From a virus (lineage: Duplodnaviria; Heunggongvirae; Uroviricota; Caudoviricetes): a DNA stretch of 38,383 bases. The translations under genes and the position numbers were made by a program. The stretch covers positions 1-38,383 of the IMG/VR virus record IMGVR_UViG_2711768032_000008; one strand, written 5' to 3'. Shown one piece after another: positions 3,045 through 38,383 of the stretch. Numbering within the stretch: position 1 is the stretch's first letter; each line of letters opens with the position of its first letter. Under the pieces are notes generated by a model. It saw only the letters and a program-made list of their open reading frames with translations, did not search any database and had not been told where the DNA came from.

Positions 3045-5848
3045 GATTCATACCCCCCCTGATCGCTGAAATTGCTGCGCGCTTTTGCCCTGGCCCTGCG
3101 TTCCCGCTCGTCAAGCTGGCGTGCCACTTCACGGGCAATATCCTGCGCACTCTGTCCCGGCTGTGCAACGATATGAATGGGCGCATTTATCTCATAACGA
3201 ATAACTGACGGCGGGCTGTCTGCCTTAACAGGCTGCGTCTGGTATGCCCTCGCAGGCAGACTGAACGGATGAAACGGAGCTGCTTCTGCAGGTGTCGCAG
3301 CTACCCCCATCACGCCTGCAACGACAGAAGCCAGAGCGGCTGTTCGCCGTCTGCTGGTAACATTTGCGGGGCCATTCACAATTTCGGGGCCATTTTCTCC
3401 AACAATGCCAAACTGCCCGCGAGGAATGATCCCGCCCGTGTCGTACATCCCTGCGTAAGCCGGGAACCCACCGGGCGGCAGCACCACTTTGCCGTCACTG
3501 TTCACCGTGGCGGATTGCTGCTGCGTAACCTGCGCAGGCAGTTTCGCCTTCGCAGCCTCCTTACTGACAATACCGAGCTTTTCCAGCAGCCACGACACAC
3601 CGGATTTAAGTGATTCCAGCGGGTGCATCACCCTATTCAGACCTTCCGCCAGCGCCTCACCAAACCGGCGCCCCATTGCAGCTGCGCTGTTCAGTTCTTC
3701 AGAAGTGGATTTAACCGGCGTAAGCAAATCATTGAACCAGCCCCACAAGGCCTGCACCCTGTCACCCATCCACTGAAACATGGGCCTGAGCGGCTCAAAG
3801 GCGGCACTGATGGGCGCAGCAGCGGCTTTGAACCCTTCCACCACGCCCCCCAGAAATGCACTGATGGGCTGCCAGTATTTCCACACAACCAACGCCGCAC
3901 CAGCCAGCGCAGCCACAACCAGCCCTATCGGACTGAGCAGCGCACCCAGTAGTCCACTGATGGCAAACAGAGCAACGCGCAACAGCGCCAGCGGACCAGA
4001 AACCAGCAACCGCAACACACCCCCGGTACGTGTTACCGCCGCCGCTGCGGAAGGTAATGCCTTAGCTGCCAGCATCGACAACCCGAAACGGATCACTGCA
4101 ATTGGCCCCAGCACCGCAGCCACCGCCACGGCAAGCGTCCCCAGCCCGACAGCTATCACCGCCATGACCGCCGCCACTTTCATCAGCGTGCCCGCCAGCA
4201 CGGGGTTCTGCTCAACCCATCGACGCAGCGCCCCGGTCACGCCCTTAACCATGCCCATAATATCCATCAGCGGCTGGCGCAGCGTTTCCCCCAGGCTGCT
4301 GAAAGCGTTCTGCGCACCCGTCTTAACCAGCAACCACTGCGCAGACAATGAATCCTTGTTAATGTCGGATTCTTTCTGCATGGAGCCATTAGCACCACCG
4401 CCTGATGTGAGTTTCAGCTGACGCTGCAGCTCCGGCAGGTTGTTAGCCAGCTTTGCCGCATCATCGCCAAACTCTTTGCCAAAAAGCATCGTCATTGCAG
4501 ACAGGCGCTTGTCCTGCGGCAGATTGTTGACCTTCTCCAGAACCCGCCGAATGGTGCCCATGGCATCGGTGGTCATCTGCTTTTCAATCTCCGCCGGATT
4601 GAGTTTCAGCAGGCTCATACCTTCAAAGAAGCGCTTACTTTGCATGGTGGCAATGGACAGTTCACGCACCATGGCATTAGAGGCGCTGGCGGCAATTTCC
4701 GGGGCAGCCCCCAAAGAAAGGAATGTTGAACCCAGCGCAGCAGCCTTTCGGAAGTCAAGACGGTCAGCCACGCCCCCCATGCGCTGCAGGACGTTGATAA
4801 TGTCCCCGCCCTTTGACATGGCGTTATCGTCTAGGTAGTTCAGCGCATCGCCCAGCTGTTCAATATTGCGCGTCGGAACTTTATAGAGCTGCGCGATTTT
4901 CCCCAACCCTTCCGCCAGCTCATCGGCTGGCAGCTCAAAGGCCGTTGCAGCTTTTGCCGCCGTGGATGCAAAGGCCAGCAGGTCACGTTTCTGGTCCTCA
5001 AAGGGATCGTCCTGGCTGGTCACGCCCATGCGCGCGCCCCCCTCAACCAGCGCGGCATAGTCTATAGCGCCATTCTCCATGGGCAGCTGCTCACTGGCAG
5101 CCTTGATGGCATCCTGCATATCATAAAACTGTTTTGTACGGTTGCCGTTATCGTCACGCAGCCCGTTTACCTGCTTTGCCACGCCTTTCATGGCATCTTC
5201 CATACTGGCGTAGCTCTTAACTGCAGCCATAACCGGCGCGCCCATTGCCAGCCCCGCTGCCGTGGTGGTGGCCCCGGCTCCGGCAATGCGATCCCGAACC
5301 TCCAGACGGCGCGAATACTGATCACGAACCGCATTCATTCTCGCCTGCTGTTCACCCAGGCGTTTCAGGGATTTTTGCTGTCGCTCCAGTGCCAGTCGGG
5401 TTTCATCGGCGTTCTGCCGTAACTCACGCTGTGCGCTGCTCAGTTTCTTTGTATCAAGCCCTGCCTCATTCAGCGCAAGGCGCTGACGCTGCACTGACTG
5501 ACGCAGCCCGTTATATTTTCCCTGTAAATCGGTGACGCGATTTTTAGCCTGCTCAAGCAGCCTGGCCTGTGCAGCCGTCGGGCGGTTGGTCACAGTAAAC
5601 TGCGTGGCGAGTTTTGCCGCTTCTTCGCGGGCGGCTTTAAGGCTGTTACCTGTGACTGCCAGCTGCGCGCTGGCCTTACGGAAGCCATCAATTCTGCCCG
5701 CCTGAGAATCTAACTCTTTCAGTCGGGCGCGGCTTTGCTGAATGGCGGCAGCCAGCTCTTTTGAGCTGGCCTGCGCGGATCGAAATGGGCGGGTGAGCTT
5801 GTCAACCGCATTCAGAATCACCTGCAGACGCAGGTTAGTGTCACTCAT
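3041..5848 (-). CDS. T: Tail tape measure protein (gpT-like)
   Basis: 935 aa with coiled-coil N-terminal part and Ala/Gly-rich hydrophobic middle segment; start overlaps the E' stop (ATGAGTGA). Confidence 0.9.
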   Translation of the reverse strand: MSDTNLRLQVILNAVDKLTRPFRSAQASSKELAAAIQQSRARLKELDSQAGRIDGFRKASAQLAVTGNSLKAAREEAAKLATQFTVTNRPTAAQARLLEQAKNRVTDLQGKYNGLRQSVQRQRLALNEAGLDTKKLSSAQRELRQNADETRLALERQQKSLKRLGEQQARMNAVRDQYSRRLEVRDRIAGAGATTTAAGLAMGAPVMAAVKSYASMEDAMKGVAKQVNGLRDDNGNRTKQFYDMQDAIKAASEQLPMENGAIDYAALVEGGARMGVTSQDDPFEDQKRDLLAFASTAAKAATAFELPADELAEGLGKIAQLYKVPTRNIEQLGDALNYLDDNAMSKGGDIINVLQRMGGVADRLDFRKAAALGSTFLSLGAAPEIAASASNAMVRELSIATMQSKRFFEGMSLLKLNPAEIEKQMTTDAMGTIRRVLEKVNNLPQDKRLSAMTMLFGKEFGDDAAKLANNLPELQRQLKLTSGGGANGSMQKESDINKDSLSAQWLLVKTGAQNAFSSLGETLRQPLMDIMGMVKGVTGALRRWVEQNPVLAGTLMKVAAVMAVIAVGLGTLAVAVAAVLGPIAVIRFGLSMLAAKALPSAAAAVTRTGGVLRLLVSGPLALLRVALFAISGLLGALLSPIGLVVAALAGAALVVWKYWQPISAFLGGVVEGFKAAAAPISAAFEPLRPMFQWMGDRVQALWGWFNDLLTPVKSTSEELNSAAAMGRRFGEALAEGLNRVMHPLESLKSGVSWLLEKLGIVSKEAAKAKLPAQVTQQQSATVNSDGKVVLPPGGFPAYAGMYDTGGIIPRGQFGIVGENGPEIVNGPANVTSRRRTAALASVVAGVMGVAATPAEAAPFHPFSLPARAYQTQPVKADSPPSVIRYEINAPIHIVAQPGQSAQDIAREVARQLDERERRARAKARSNFSDQGGYES

Positions 5849-32401: not shown

Positions 32402-32446
32402 ATGTAGGAATTTCGGACGCGGGTTCAACTCCCGCCAGCTCCACCA
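32402..32446 (+). repeat. attR core: displaced copy of the ssrA 3' end (45 bp)
   Basis: Identical to 1016-1060; no tmRNA 5' portion upstream. Confidence 0.85.
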
Positions 32447-32611
32447 CTTTTTAGTTGTTTGAAGTTCAATGAAGTCTACTAAGCCCACACAGCACAAGCT
32501 CTGCGGGCTTTTTTACGTCTATTGTCGTCCAGTGAGAATTGCTGAGAACTACGAGTTATGGCACCCTGAATGGGACCCACTAAGAAGGGTCCAAAAACCG
32601 AGGGTCCCAAA

Positions 32612-33841
32612 ATGGCAAAAATCGCTAAGAAGCTCACTGACACTGAAATCAAAAGCACCAAGCCAGCCGATAAAGAAATCAACTTGTTTGACGGTGATGG
32701 TCTGATTCTACGAATCGCTCCTTTGGCGAAAGGAGGCAAGAAAAATTGGTATTTCAGGTATGCAGTACCAGTGAGCAAGAAAAGAACCAAAATGAGCCTT
32801 GGGACATATCCTCACCTTACCCTTGCAAGAGCCAGAGCCTTACGTGATGAATATCTCTCCTTTCTGGCAAATGGTGTTGATCCCCAAATCCATAACAACG
32901 ATAAGGCGAAGGCATTAAAGAGTGCTACTGAGCACACTCTCCAAGCCGTAGCGCGGAAATGGTTAGATGAGAAGGTAAAGACATCAGGTATCTCACAAGA
33001 CCATGCAGCAGACATCTGGCGCAGCTTAGAGAGAAATGTCTTTCCCGGTCTGGGTAATGTCCCTATCAATGAGATCCGACCTAAGCTCTTAAAACAACAC
33101 CTTGATCCTATTGAGCAACGAGGCGTATTGGAAACTCTACGCCGTATCATTTCACGTCTGAATGAAATCTTCCGGTGGGCAGCTACTGAAGAACTTATTG
33201 AGTTCAACCCGGCTGACAACCTTGGTCAAAGATTCAGTAAACCAAAAAAGCAAAATATGCCTGCCCTTCCCCCAAGCGAATTGCCAAGGTTTATGGAATC
33301 TTTGACGAATGCGTCAATCCGGTTGGAAACACGTATGCTAATTGAATGGCAATTGTTGACATGGGTTCGTCCGGGTGAAGCCGTTCGCGCAAGGTGGTCT
33401 GATATTGATACAACCAACAGCATTTGGAACATTCCTGCTGATTTCATGAAAATGAAAAAGCTTCACAAAGTTCCTTTGAGTAAAGAAGCTTTGCGCATCC
33501 TTGAATTAATGAAATCAATAAGTGGGCATAGAGAATGGGTTTTCCCCAGCATAAAAGCGCCTCTTAATCATATGCATGAACAAACAGCCAACGCAGCTAT
33601 CATCCGAATGGGGTTCGGAGGCGAGCTTGTAGCTCACGGTATGCGTTCTATTGCACGAACAGCGGCAGAGGAGTCTGGTAAATTCAGAGCTGAAGTTCTT
33701 GAGGCAGCGCTTGCCCACTCGAAAAAAGATGAAATTATCGCAGCATACAATCGTGCAGAATATCTGATAGAGCGACAGAGTTTGATGCAATGGTGGAGTG
33801 ATTACGTTCAAGCTCAAAGATCAAATGCTCTGGTAGCCTAA
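32612..33841 (+). CDS. Tyrosine integrase, P4/CP4-57 (IntA)-like
   Basis: Start chosen at MAKIAKKLTDTEIKSTKP (tracked ORF from 32570); N-terminal LTDTEIK...DGDGL motif and C-terminal HGMRSIARTAA...AYNRAEY catalytic region. Confidence 0.85.
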   Translation: MAKIAKKLTDTEIKSTKPADKEINLFDGDGLILRIAPLAKGGKKNWYFRYAVPVSKKRTKMSLGTYPHLTLARARALRDEYLSFLANGVDPQIHNNDKAKALKSATEHTLQAVARKWLDEKVKTSGISQDHAADIWRSLERNVFPGLGNVPINEIRPKLLKQHLDPIEQRGVLETLRRIISRLNEIFRWAATEELIEFNPADNLGQRFSKPKKQNMPALPPSELPRFMESLTNASIRLETRMLIEWQLLTWVRPGEAVRARWSDIDTTNSIWNIPADFMKMKKLHKVPLSKEALRILELMKSISGHREWVFPSIKAPLNHMHEQTANAAIIRMGFGGELVAHGMRSIARTAAEESGKFRAEVLEAALAHSKKDEIIAAYNRAEYLIERQSLMQWWSDYVQAQRSNALVA

Positions 33842-33879: not shown

Positions 33880-34296
33880 ATGGAAACCCTATTCAAAGTT
33901 TTTGAAAAATTTAGTTCCAGACCACTTTTTTTTATTTTTTTCGGACTCTCACTTTGTGAATTTTTTCAGAAACAATCTGTTCTGATGAATCCATCAGCAG
34001 ATAACATCGCGAAATTATTCGCAGCCATGATATTAGTTGTTTTTTTTACTTGGGGATTTGAATGGCTAATCTTCAAGTTCAATGTAAACCTTGAACCTCA
34101 TGATCAAGGCGATATTGGACCAACAATTGGAACGGCTACTTTAGCTGTATACTTAGTTTATGCCTTTCACTTTCTCAGTGAAAATCCTGAAGCATTAAAT
34201 TTAAAGTTATTAACTAACTCTGGCTTTATATACAGCACAACTCTATTATTATTCTCATTAGAATGCATGAAGCTTAGAAGACTTAAACAAAAATAA
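33880..34296 (+). CDS. Small hypothetical membrane protein (about 4 TM segments)
   Basis: 138 aa, AT-rich, hydrophobic stretches (LFFIFFGLSL, FAAMILVVFFTWGFEWLIF, TATLAVYLVYAFHFL, FIYSTTLLLFSL). Confidence 0.5.
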   Translation: METLFKVFEKFSSRPLFFIFFGLSLCEFFQKQSVLMNPSADNIAKLFAAMILVVFFTWGFEWLIFKFNVNLEPHDQGDIGPTIGTATLAVYLVYAFHFLSENPEALNLKLLTNSGFIYSTTLLLFSLECMKLRRLKQK

Positions 34297-34367: not shown

Positions 34368-36134
34368 TTATGGTAGCATCATTGATACATAATCCACACC
34401 AATCCTTGAGCTATACTGAGACGCTATAGCCTGATATCTTTCTGCATAACCAGTTCTCAGTTGAGATTTAAGTTTGAGTCGGACAGGAACATTTTGCACG
34501 TTGCCATCCATATTACTTAAAAACACGGCAGAAATAATATTTTTTTCTTCGCCATCAACTGTTGTTCCATGATTCAACACCACCATATAATCAACAACAG
34601 GAAGCGTTTTATCCCCTTCGAAAATAGAGAGATATTTTCTTTGATTTTTATGCATTACATATATATATTTCGAATGTTCAGCAAATGGCAATGCTTTACT
34701 CTGACTGGCGTTAAAAAGCTCCAGAACTTTAATGAGCCTGTGCGGACTTAATCTTACATGGTGAGGGTCGTTACCCTGAGTAGGAACCAAATCACATGCC
34801 GCAGATACACATAAATACCATTTGTTCGACTCTGTATCAAAGAAAATAGTGCCAGTAGAAATATGACCATCTTCAAAATTCTTTGAAGACAAATTCATAT
34901 TTAAAGCATGATACATTTCGTGATAAGTATCATTATTTGATGGCAGATCCATTTTTGAAGAGCAATATTGGAGCAATGCAGCAACTCCGCTGTTAGCGTA
35001 TTCATTTGAATAGCTATCAAAAACACTTTTGATAAATTCATCCAGCGTATTATTATTTTTAAGTCTTTGATAAAGCTCTTCTGATAAATTACCAAATACA
35101 AAGTCAATATTTCTACATCTAATATCAGGCGAGTCTGATTTTAATATCTCATTTAACCACGCAGCTTGACCGTAATGATCGTTAGCCAAATGATTTACAA
35201 AAGATAAAGCCTCAGCTTCGATTGCATTCTGAATTTCAGATTTTATTAACTGATAATAAGATGGTTTCCATTCAATGAGAGAATCATTGAGAGTTTGCCA
35301 AATCCTATCTCCATCGTTTTCATGATCATCTTGAACCTTATGAAATAGGGAGACAAAGATATTACCACATTGAATCCATTTTACTCCGCTTTCATCACCC
35401 CGAATGACATTGCCAGATGTGTTGCTAGAAATAATTGCATTTCTAGACACAGCATATTCTGCAATCATTTTTGCAATGAAGTTTTTATCCTTTTGATCCT
35501 CCAACACAGCATCATCATGTATTAATCTTTTAATTCTTCTACAAGGCTTACTGTCTTTAATATAGGCTATTGTTTCATCTCTTGTGAGAGCTTTATTACC
35601 ATTATCATTTAAGTTCGGTAATACAACGTCTTCCCAATAACTTTGGACATCTTCATTATCGTAGTCAATGATCAAGCTGTTGATATCCAGAGCACCTTTG
35701 AGAGTCGATGATATCTGCATCCAAACCGTTTCTAAATTCTCTCTAGTATATATTACAATCATATTTAAATGATCGGAGTCTTTCAAATCTTGTAATAGTT
35801 TAAGTGTTTTATCAGGTGCATTATTATCAAGATGATAATCTACAATAATAAGATCTGATTTCCTAATCCGATCCACATCGAAATTAACAGAACCATTGTC
35901 AACATCACAAATCATATTTTTAGATTGAAAAAAGCTCTCAAGAGTAGCGGCTCGTTTAGATGAGTCAATTTTGTTGTAGTCTAAATCAACTTCGTTATTC
36001 AACGCCCTGATTGATTCAGAATACGTCAGAAAATCGTCATCAATCATGACAACGGAACGAATTGCATTTTCGCAGAAAGTTTTCTGGACAAGAGAATTAT
36101 AATTTGCCACTGTCATATTAGAACTCCACTCCAT
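34368..36134 (-). CDS. Receiver (REC)-like domain protein with large uncharacterised C-terminal domain
   Basis: 588 aa; N-terminal VVMIDDD ... DLIIVDYHL ... NMIVIYT resembles a response-regulator receiver fold; the remaining ~450 aa match nothing I recognise; AT-rich; 17-bp overlap with the upstream kinase-like gene. Confidence 0.6.
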   Translation of the reverse strand: MEWSSNMTVANYNSLVQKTFCENAIRSVVMIDDDFLTYSESIRALNNEVDLDYNKIDSSKRAATLESFFQSKNMICDVDNGSVNFDVDRIRKSDLIIVDYHLDNNAPDKTLKLLQDLKDSDHLNMIVIYTRENLETVWMQISSTLKGALDINSLIIDYDNEDVQSYWEDVVLPNLNDNGNKALTRDETIAYIKDSKPCRRIKRLIHDDAVLEDQKDKNFIAKMIAEYAVSRNAIISSNTSGNVIRGDESGVKWIQCGNIFVSLFHKVQDDHENDGDRIWQTLNDSLIEWKPSYYQLIKSEIQNAIEAEALSFVNHLANDHYGQAAWLNEILKSDSPDIRCRNIDFVFGNLSEELYQRLKNNNTLDEFIKSVFDSYSNEYANSGVAALLQYCSSKMDLPSNNDTYHEMYHALNMNLSSKNFEDGHISTGTIFFDTESNKWYLCVSAACDLVPTQGNDPHHVRLSPHRLIKVLELFNASQSKALPFAEHSKYIYVMHKNQRKYLSIFEGDKTLPVVDYMVVLNHGTTVDGEEKNIISAVFLSNMDGNVQNVPVRLKLKSQLRTGYAERYQAIASQYSSRIGVDYVSMMLP

Positions 36135-37836
36135 TGAACTGGATCACAAAATTAGCGCCATCTTTTATTAAATAGTTATCGCCTTCATCAGGTTCTGAAT
36201 ACCATATTTTATGATGTGCAACAGCAAGGTTTTCTCGACATAGATACAGACCTACCCCATGTCCATTTGCTCTTTTGCTATAAAATAGTTCAAATAGTCG
36301 CGGGATATCATCGGTATCAATTGCCGGACCAGAATTTGCTATGATAACCAAAGAATTCACAAAACCAATCTTTATGAGCCTATTATTTGACAGACTGACC
36401 CAATACATTGCATTGTTGATAATATTAGTAAAAACAGGATAGATCCTTGATGGTATATCTGTTATTGCGATTTGCTTAAACTCTTCACTAAATTCAATAG
36501 TTATTCGTTGCCGTTCGAAACGCTCCCCAAAGAACTTCAGGACATAATCCATGATATTTTTTCCAGTTATTCTCTGCCTGGATTGATAACCTGATATTTT
36601 CAAAGGTGATAAGAAACGTATTTGTTGAGTAAGCGATCTGTGAGCATTTAACGCCAATGAAAAACCAGGGTGTTCTTTTACAGAAGTAGGAAGAGAGTTT
36701 AGTCCTCTGGTTACCATAGAATCCATTTCTTCAAGTTCATGAGATGTTATCTCAACACTAATACCTAACTGTGCAAGCGCGTTTAAACTTTTAGCTTTTT
36801 CTTCAAAATATGAGCGTTCTTCTTCAGATAATGAGAATGCTGAATCTAAGTTTATACCTTCAAATAATCTATCGAGACCTTTTATTATTGATTGATATTT
36901 GAAAGTTAGGGTATCAACTGACTCAACATATAAACTATCGAGCAAATTAAACACATTTTCAATTTGTGAATCATTATCTATTGAATCAACAACTGATATA
37001 GTTTTAGCATAATAATCACTTCGATCAACCTTTATTTCATCGGCCCATTTTTTTAAAAGAGAATGTATCTTCTCCTCTATCGTGTTATTAAACTTAGTTA
37101 GTTTAGAATTAATAATACCTTGATTTTTTTCAAGGTGATTTTTCGCTGCCAATGAAGGCTCAAGTTTATTTAATTCAGAATCAAGTTTATTAATTGCTAA
37201 CTTCATTTGTAGAATATACGCAGAGAACTCATTAAATTTATCTCTGTAGTCTCTATATTTCTCTTCATACATTCCAAGTTTTGGAGGTTTGATAGGCGTT
37301 TTAATTTCACTGCGCAACGCATCTAAGTTTGTAAGATCACTGTCTATAATTTTAAGATAGTTTAAATCTAACGAACCATCAGTTTTATCAAGCTTAGTTT
37401 TCAGCCTTTTAACAGCCTCCAAGGAAGCATCAAGAACTGGTGTCTGATTCTTCAAAGCTTCTGAAAAACTTTTTTGTGTTGATTTTCGAGCTTGTTGTTG
37501 AGCAGATTTTCTTAACTCTTTTTCACGCTTAACTTGTTCTAAAAGCTCTTTACGGTCATCAGAACGTGAACCAAAAAATCTATCAGCAAGTTCAGTTAAC
37601 AAATTAGATATAATAGTTTTCAGTTCTCTTGCAGCCTGGTATCTTATGAATCCCTCTCTCCCCGACTTATCTTTCAGCTCTTTATTACTGGATTGAGTAA
37701 TTCCAATATAACCAAAAATCCTTCTATTAGACCAATAATATCGCCCTGCATTCCATGAACGTCTTTCTTCTATCTGGAAGAAATCATTATCTACTCGACC
37801 ATAAGGTAATACTCTCAAGCTATCCCTAAAAATCAT
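36118..37836 (-). CDS. Histidine-kinase-like protein (H-box + HATPase_c), 5'-truncated by IS3
   Basis: C-terminal TSHELEEM (H-box-like), N-box NIINNAMYW, G1 IANSGPAID, G2 GHGVGL; long coiled-coil-rich N-terminal region; frame stays open upstream of the first Met to the IS3 junction (in-frame stop only at 37963-37965, inside the IS). Confidence 0.6.
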   Translation of the reverse strand: MIFRDSLRVLPYGRVDNDFFQIEERRSWNAGRYYWSNRRIFGYIGITQSSNKELKDKSGREGFIRYQAARELKTIISNLLTELADRFFGSRSDDRKELLEQVKREKELRKSAQQQARKSTQKSFSEALKNQTPVLDASLEAVKRLKTKLDKTDGSLDLNYLKIIDSDLTNLDALRSEIKTPIKPPKLGMYEEKYRDYRDKFNEFSAYILQMKLAINKLDSELNKLEPSLAAKNHLEKNQGIINSKLTKFNNTIEEKIHSLLKKWADEIKVDRSDYYAKTISVVDSIDNDSQIENVFNLLDSLYVESVDTLTFKYQSIIKGLDRLFEGINLDSAFSLSEEERSYFEEKAKSLNALAQLGISVEITSHELEEMDSMVTRGLNSLPTSVKEHPGFSLALNAHRSLTQQIRFLSPLKISGYQSRQRITGKNIMDYVLKFFGERFERQRITIEFSEEFKQIAITDIPSRIYPVFTNIINNAMYWVSLSNNRLIKIGFVNSLVIIANSGPAIDTDDIPRLFELFYSKRANGHGVGLYLCRENLAVAHHKIWYSEPDEGDNYLIKDGANFVIQFNGVEF

Positions 37837-37957
37837 TAGTCCTGCATACTTTTTGGCCTTAAGATCAAAGTGGGAATGTTCACGTTCAGTATGTGATGTA
37901 TTTTGTGAAAGGAATTCAAACGTTCCTATCTGAAGCTCAAATGGGCCGACCCCTGCG

Positions 37958-38383
37958 TGATCCTACCCACGTAATATGGACACAGGCCTAAGCGAGGTTC
38001 TTGTTTTCAAATTGTTCCGGACTGAGGCCGCCACACCAACTGTGCCGCCGCCACCGATTGTAATCACATTCGATATAATTAAACACCGTTGCCCGCATTA
38101 TTTCCCGGCTGATAAAGTGTTCTCCATGGATACATTCCACTTTCAGCGAATGAAAGAAGCTTTCCACGCAGGCATTATCGTAGCAGCAACCTTTTGCGCT
38201 CATACTTCCACGCAGATTATGCCGCTTCAGTTGCGCCTGATAATCTGCTGAACAGTACTGGCCTCCACGGTCCGTGTGAACGATAACGTTCCGGGGCCTC
38301 TTACGCCGCCACAGCGCCATCTGCAGGGCATCGCAGGCCAGTTGCGCCGTCATGCGTGGCGACATTGACCAGCCAATAACGGC
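37958..38383 (-). mobile_element. IS3-family insertion sequence, right end (partial, runs off window)
   Basis: Terminal inverted repeat TGATCCTACCCACGTAATATGGACACAGGCCTAAG starting at 37958; contains the 3' part of a transposase gene. Confidence 0.8.
37988..38383 (-). CDS. IS3-family transposase OrfB, C-terminal fragment (5' end outside window)
   Basis: Translation ...[10 protein letters not shown]...[23 protein letters not shown]... is a DDE transposase C-terminus. Confidence 0.85.

Follow-up and report, generated by a model that had tools for sequence, protein, structure and literature searches.

A kinase-like gene truncated at an IS3 copy beside ssrA in Escherichia coli, and the probable decay of its remnant

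The stretch analysed here, IMG/VR virus record IMGVR_UViG_2711768032_000008 (Caudoviricetes; positions 1 to 38,383, hereafter the window), ends inside a copy of the insertion sequence (IS) IS3, and directly next to this copy lies a minus-strand, kinase-like open reading frame (ORF) that has lost its native 5' end. We consider it highly probable that a deletion at IS3 truncated a paraMORC-type kinase-like gene and that the stump is now drifting as a pseudogene. The original gene was a 988-codon paraMORC-type histidine-kinase-like gene, part of a three-gene operon (C5 methylase, kinase-like protein, receiver-effector) on a mobilisable island at ssrA. A large E. coli lineage descends from a cell in which a deletion, bounded on one side by an IS3 copy, took the first part of the kinase gene together with the sensor/ATPase module (GHKL, HATPase_c_3) encoded there, the operon promoter and the methylase gene, and also the remaining island, the distal attachment site and chromosomal DNA to 1145 nucleotides (nt) into an alpha-amylase-like gene. 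Left over are a start-less stretch, a 572-codon ORF that begins at an internal Met (here called HK') and an intact receiver gene. The features at the breakpoint are as follows.

36118 to 37836, minus strand: HK', truncated kinase-like ORF, 572 amino acids (aa), residues 417-988 of the intact 988-aa protein
37837 to 37957, minus strand: in-frame remnant that spans original codons 376 (third base only) to 416
37963 to 37965, minus strand: TAG closing the HK' frame upstream, 6-8 nt within the IS3 terminal repeat
37958 to 38383, minus strand: IS3, its 3' portion as far as the window reaches, with rve, rve_2 and rve_3 domains (RefSeq 'IS3-like element IS3 family transposase')
36595 to 36771, minus strand: HEF_HK (DHp-like) domain with the H-box SHELEEMD, E 1.5e-4, 22.6 bits, slightly below the cut-off of 24.1
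36178 to 36453, minus strand: HATPase_c catalytic (CA-type) domain, 44.7 bits against a cut-off of 26.4
34368 to 36116, minus strand: intact partner gene, 582 aa, its start 1 nt past the HK' stop

The truncated frame and its intact homologues

Direct reading of the minus strand showed a frame without a stop from 37962 to the TAA at 36120-36118, as an earlier, sequence-only reading of this DNA had stated for the region upstream of Met 37836. The one stop upstream, the TAG at 37965-37963, sits in ...GGGTAGGATCA, the IS3 terminal inverted repeat, which also agrees with that reading. The earliest ATG, GTG or TTG in the frame is the ATG at 37836, with an AGGA 3 nt 5' of it. The remnant at 37837-37957 has no start codon and, if transcribed, would now be a 5' leader.

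A protein search returned intact 988-aa homologues with 99% identity from Serratia, Klebsiella and Salmonella. When the translation of 37959-36118 was compared with residues 376-988 of one of them (P0003), 606 of 613 residues were identical and no gap was needed, and the 40 residues preceding the HK' Met were all identical to residues 377-416. Judged by this alignment, the 41 sense codons upstream of the HK' Met are true coding sequence and not a chance open frame. At the DNA level, homology to the intact gene (locus L003) begins right at the IS3 end, with a one-base ambiguity; the junction reads ...GGATCA followed by CGCAGGGGTCGG, versus ...ATCCTAA followed by CGCAGGAGTCGG in the intact gene. 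IS3 thus sits exactly at the breakpoint and the native 5' end is missing, both as had been proposed, and the alignment with IS-free homologues that had been suggested as a check recovered the missing N-terminal segment: 375 codons plus 2 nt, or 1127 nt, including HATPase_c_3. HK' corresponds to the 3' 62% of the 988-codon gene.

Pfam placed three domains on the intact protein, HATPase_c_3 at residues 28-137, HEF_HK at 772-830 and HATPase_c at 878-969. The first of these falls entirely inside the deleted 375 codons, and a domain search of the window ORF found no HATPase_c_3, the domain that marks the group 1 architecture of the family described below. The HATPase_c domain at the C-terminus of HK' is retained and matches sensor-kinase CA domains in the PDB (E 7e-7). 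In the HEF_HK region of HK' the conserved His is followed by an acidic residue, and SHELEE does not vary across the alignment; with 25.3 bits the intact allele passes the cut-off here, and the HK' allele carries I780T, two residues ahead of the H-box His. The structure model of the full-length kinase is weak, with a predicted local distance difference test (pLDDT) value of 59, so the breakpoint is not placeable in a domain with confidence.

The partner protein encoded next to HK' consists of an N-terminal Response_reg_2 receiver (approximately 35592-36062) and a C-terminal part of about 400 aa. Its predicted structure reached a pLDDT of 85, and the C-terminal ~400 residues gave no match among solved structures.

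The intact operon could be seen beside smpB/ssrA in three loci (L003-L005), where an integrase gene is followed by the 138-aa gene, then by the genes for the receiver and the 988-aa kinase-like protein, and then by a C5 DNA methylase gene, which overlaps the kinase start by 20 nt at its 3' end. Past the methylase lie a relaxase and two more integrases. The methylase of L003-L007 scored 200 bits for PF00145 and 163 bits for TIGR00675. An upstream C5 methylase is a frequent, not universal, companion of such genes, and in the window IS3 stands in its place. From the breakpoint to a repeat of the ssrA 3' end, the window is 98.99% identical to L003 over 5555 nt, which indicates that the mobilisable island of L003 is present here too, as its ssrA-proximal stump. 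In the lost head, residues 13-138 of P0003 match the NCBIfam model for the N-terminus of BbrUII/HgiDII restriction enzymes (E 1.5e-13), which hints that the head of the intact protein is related to ATP-dependent restriction enzymes paired with C5 methylases.

IS3 and the far side of the breakpoint

The same junction as in the window was found at 99.9-100% identity in E. coli W and in strain ETEC-2264, and in these genomes both ends of IS3 and its frameshifted transposase gene are present. The copy in W is 1258 bp in full. These copies show the features of IS3, namely TGATC... terminal repeats, a length of ~1258 bp, the orfA/orfB programmed frameshift and a DDE (rve) transposase. In the window, the final base of IS3 is 37958, the right inverted repeat ends in ...GGATCA (sequence ...CCATATTACGTGGGTAGGATCA), and the 3' end of orfB, with the rve integrase core, is present up to its TAG stop at 37990-37988. 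The transposase gene and HK' are co-directional; as the transposase stop lies in another frame than HK', a transposase-HK' fusion protein is impossible.

On the far side of IS3, W and ETEC-2264 have a 5'-truncated alpha-amylase-like pseudogene followed by glaH-lhgO-gabDTP. The alpha-amylase-like gene is full-length (2253 nt) in strain 21EVA, with a tRNA-Ile gene ahead of it, and W-type genomes retain it only downstream of nt 1145. A 3-bp target-site duplication was not found around IS3 in W, where the flanking triplets are TCT on the left (...TTATCT) and CGC on the right (CGCAGG...). The sequence-only reading had ascribed the truncation to an IS3 insertion and had suggested that the 5' part of the gene and a 3-bp duplication be sought beyond the IS3 copy; in W and ETEC-2264 neither was there, and a simple insertion was not supported.

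We searched 5426 complete E. coli genomes by megablast, the query being made up of the methylase gene and the initial 1400 nt of the intact kinase gene. Matches were obtained in 559 genomes, and among the matches listed every row covers query positions 2316-2589, position 2316 being the breakpoint. The 5' part or the methylase was found in none of the 5426 genomes, no match exceeding the retained 11% of the query. A second query, 300 bp with the junction between IS3 and HK' at its centre, was fully present in 484 genomes. A different gene on the far side, no duplication and a missing part that occurs in none of these E. coli genomes together point to an IS3-bounded deletion. Since the missing part is absent from the sampled genomes and the junction is common to 484 of them, one ancestral event explains all copies. 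By these comparisons, the truncation is an IS3-bounded deletion that arose in a single ancestral event and is carried by ~484-559 genomes, about 10% of the complete E. coli genomes.

IS3 may have produced the adjacent deletion in one step, or two IS3 copies may have recombined. The IS3 transposase has been reported to cause adjacent deletions (Kanai et al. 2022, PMC8860574), and the present locus is like the IS3-adjacent truncations described there in having a complete IS3 between two unrelated truncated genes and no target duplication.

Decay or continued use of the remnant

In the intact system, the methylase would mark self DNA, and the N-terminal GHKL module of the kinase-like protein would take up a signal that leads to autophosphorylation at His782; the phosphate would then pass to the Asp of the partner receiver and switch on its C-terminal effector. 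With the input module and the methylase gone, the relay would be broken at its first step and the remnant would be left to drift as a pseudogene. Any transcription of the remnant would have to come from IS3, by read-through or from outward promoters.

Comparison with the intact allele gave the following substitution counts.

HK': 6 nonsynonymous and 4 synonymous, omega ~0.40
Receiver gene: 1 nonsynonymous and 11 synonymous, omega ~0.02

The two genes differ in these counts (Fisher p = 0.02). Among seven E. coli alleles, all five polymorphisms in HK' are nonsynonymous (R476I, N482Y, A646S, D738E and I780T), and N482Y and I780T, which occur only in the lineage of the window, fall at otherwise invariant positions. 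The receiver gene of the same seven alleles has 1 synonymous and 2 nonsynonymous polymorphisms and a 3-nt insertion. In three genomes from different sources (AH25, B1-56 and ET479), 1 nt is deleted in an A7 run of the receiver gene (window position ~34546, reference position 3412); these genomes also share a linked single-nucleotide polymorphism and the 3-nt insertion near the receiver 3' end, and PGAP marks their receiver gene as frameshifted. Two other carriers (H31 and H112) have additional IS insertions, and in ET479 a deletion bounded by IS1 took IS3, shortened the remnant by another 144 nt and removed the chromosomal genes as far as gabT. Taken together, the remnant appears to be under relaxed constraint, which fits neutral decay without proving it. 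The proposal that the system is probably inactivated gains indirect support from these signals and from what has been lost, namely the methylase, the promoter and the domain that would act as sensor.

Several points weigh against this reading. The HK' ORF and the receiver gene remain open in most carriers. The E. coli alleles are all at least 99.7% identical, and the event is therefore too recent for this openness or for the small substitution counts to decide the matter. The deletion in the A7 run could in principle be an assembly error, but three genomes share both the deletion and the linked polymorphism. The roles of all three proteins are deduced from their domains only. The window itself stops inside IS3, and its own far side is deduced from the junction it shares with other genomes. 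Finally, outward promoter motifs in IS3 point into HK' and an AGGA precedes its ATG, which would allow a kinase without the sensor to be produced. The two motifs are these.

38057 to 38083, minus strand: outward promoter signature TTTAAT-15 nt-TACAAT, an exact match to the motif of PMC12095673
38009 to 38039, minus strand: outward promoter TTGGTG...CAATTT, an exact match to the motif of Charlier et al. 1982 quoted in PMC12095673

The first motif has been described as the outward-facing promoter signature of the IS3 right end, and the second is quoted there as the IS3 outward promoter (PMC12095673). The locus resembles the IS3 mobile promoter of these reports in that the right-end outward motifs face the remnant; a promoter could be in use here. 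In the same study, expression was reduced ~1.9-fold by the terminal 50 bp of this IS3 end. A consensus sigma-70 scan of 37600-38383 gave two chance-level sites, both in orfB, and none at the junction, so the promoter argument rests on the published motifs. No terminator was predicted between IS3 and the HK' ORF. It is possible, with these motifs present, that HK' is driven by an IS3 outward promoter, the alternative to inactivation that the sequence-only reading had named.

These motifs bear on the idea that the remnant is still in use, in which IS3 promoters or read-through would express HK' and the receiver gene, the sensor-less kinase would phosphorylate the receiver-effector, and a methylase-independent module would be under selection. 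We regard this as unlikely. The published motifs are present in the correct orientation with no predicted terminator behind them, H-box, CA domain and receiver gene are all undamaged, the receiver gene differs from the intact allele by 1 nonsynonymous and 11 synonymous substitutions, and ~10% of complete genomes carry the remnant. However, the HK' polymorphisms are all nonsynonymous and touch invariant positions, one sublineage has a frameshift in the receiver gene, and additional IS copies or a further deletion occur in other carriers. The ORF would also begin within a conserved beta-rich region (309-462 in the low-confidence model), the IS3 end dampens outward transcription, and descent from one event explains the wide distribution. 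A more specific version, in which the IS3 right-end promoter transcribes the 572-aa kinase core, this core still phosphorylates the receiver-effector, and the defence module, rewired to be constitutive and methylase-independent, is retained in ~10% of E. coli, seems to us quite improbable.

Simple insertion of IS3 would have split the gene, leaving its 5' part just past IS3 and a 3-bp duplication, so that precise excision could restore it. IS3 does abut the breakpoint exactly and the far side lies outside the window, but genomes with the same junction have another truncated gene there and differing triplets, and the 5' part and the methylase occur in 0 of the 5426 complete E. coli genomes; such an insertion is very improbable.

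The weakest alternative is that the short form is natural, homologues beginning at the equivalent Met (a 'group 2' protein with HEF_HK and HATPase_c) and the upstream frame being coincidental; it has in its favour several 572-aa proteins annotated in five genera and the 34 of 222 family sequences without HATPase_c_3 (PMC8011034), but it is hardly credible, and for this allele refuted, given that the stretch before the Met is 100% identical to intact residues 377-416, that a Salmonella counterpart is open for 999 aa and that the Met is not a near-invariant position in 25 homologues. The 572-aa homologues, from Pectobacterium, Klebsiella, Salmonella, Yersinia and Morganella (P0079-P0088), are annotated from the same internal Met. 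In Salmonella Bareilly (L006 3984-6983, GCA_009468465.1), such a '572-aa' ORF follows the methylase gene directly and in fact stays open over 999 aa, the conserved N-terminus included. The sequence-only reading had named a start of homologues at the equivalent of Met 37836 as the result that would overturn it, and the Salmonella ORF shows the opposite. The HK' Met lies outside the invariant or near-invariant columns of the 25-homologue alignment. Judging from the one case examined (L006), the 572-aa entries in other genera are start-site annotations and not short genes. We also considered a conserved internal start that gives a natural short isoform and rejected it, as conservation of the Met does not extend to more distant homologues.

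We therefore return to the deletion at IS3, followed by drift of the stump, as the best explanation. The locus is a case of ordinary IS-associated pseudogenisation in a described family that is known from computation.

Neighbouring features, family and meaning

The rest of the island stump lies on the other side of the receiver gene.

32405 to 32446, plus strand: repeat of the ssrA 3' end (compare 1018-1061), the attachment-site copy at the ssrA-proximal island end
32570 to 33841, plus strand: island tyrosine integrase, P4-type (Arm-DNA-bind_3, Phage_int_M, Phage_integrase)
33880 to 34296, plus strand: 138-aa hypothetical protein, kept in both the intact and the truncated island

The 138-aa protein gave no family match in profile searches. 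The transfer-messenger RNA gene ssrA is at 698-1060, and a second copy of its 3' end lies a short way upstream of the island integrase. The ~31 kb between the ssrA copies hold P2-like prophage genes by megablast annotation (CI repressor, CII family, integrase). From the repeat and the intervening prophage, the ssrA site appears to be occupied in tandem, in the order ssrA, prophage, ssrA repeat, island stump, IS3. The P2-like prophage at ssrA is missing from E. coli W and ETEC-2264.

The W-type island stump also occurs, at 99.9% identity, in two assemblies of 4.83 Mb that bear the label 'DH5alpha' (NZ_CP026085.1 and NZ_CM135829.1). K-12 derivatives have another element, CP4-57, at ssrA and a genome of ~4.6 Mb. 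The 'DH5alpha' labels of these two assemblies may be wrong.

By their domains and adjacency, HK' and the receiver gene belong to the HEF_HK/Response_reg_2 two-component-like family linked to methylases. This family was defined by computation alone (Bellieny-Rabelo et al. 2021, PMC8011034) as a cytoplasmic two-component-like pair, 91.6% linked, usually with a C5 methylase ahead, and related to paraMORC GHKL ATPases. The window shares with it HEF_HK, HATPase_c and the adjacent Response_reg_2 gene. The 99%-identical intact allele has the predominant 'group 1' architecture (HATPase_c_3, HEF_HK and HATPase_c) with PF00145 upstream, whereas the window copy lacks HATPase_c_3 and the methylase through deletion; it resembles 'group 2' but is truncated.

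In PADLOC (release 2.0.0, 2023) neither protein scored above noise, the presence of the Detocs models in this release not having been checked. A literature search on paraMORC, response regulator and phage turned up no experimental work on the system. Among analogues with experimental validation, the nearest in its logic is Detocs (Rousset et al. 2023, bioRxiv 10.1101/2023.01.24.525353), in which, as would be the case for the intact system, a cytoplasmic kinase-like sensor acts on a receiver fused to a non-DNA-binding effector. In contrast to Detocs, the locus in the window has no stand-alone DtcB-like buffer receiver and its proteins are not members of DtcA, DtcB or DtcC by sequence; the Detocs sensor consists of tetratricopeptide repeats, whereas the intact system has a GHKL/paraMORC module and an attached methylase. 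The other relative, BbrUII/HgiDII, is a GHKL-ATPase paired with a C5 methylase; the lost N-terminal 125 residues match it and the lost neighbour is likewise a C5 methylase. The match is confined to the GHKL head (50 bits against a cut-off of 550), and the rest of the intact protein is a coiled coil and a kinase core, not the body of a restriction enzyme.

Hundreds of E. coli genomes, that of strain W among them, have the remnant annotated by PGAP as an intact 'ATP-binding protein' (WP_000577254.1 / WP_001703571.1), and thousands of database copies (clusters of ~2000 members) resemble a kinase-only HEF_HK architecture. Together, the E. coli truncation and internal-start misannotations in other genera may inflate the 'group 2' (34 of 222) of PMC8011034. 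Lacking the methylase and the sensor, the E. coli carriers are unsuitable hosts for inferring the function of the system; the intact three-gene operon of Serratia, Klebsiella and Salmonella is the version suited to experiments. The locus is also a clean case of an IS-bounded deletion that has fixed an island where it stands, and the main value of the finding lies in annotation and in the choice of the intact operon.

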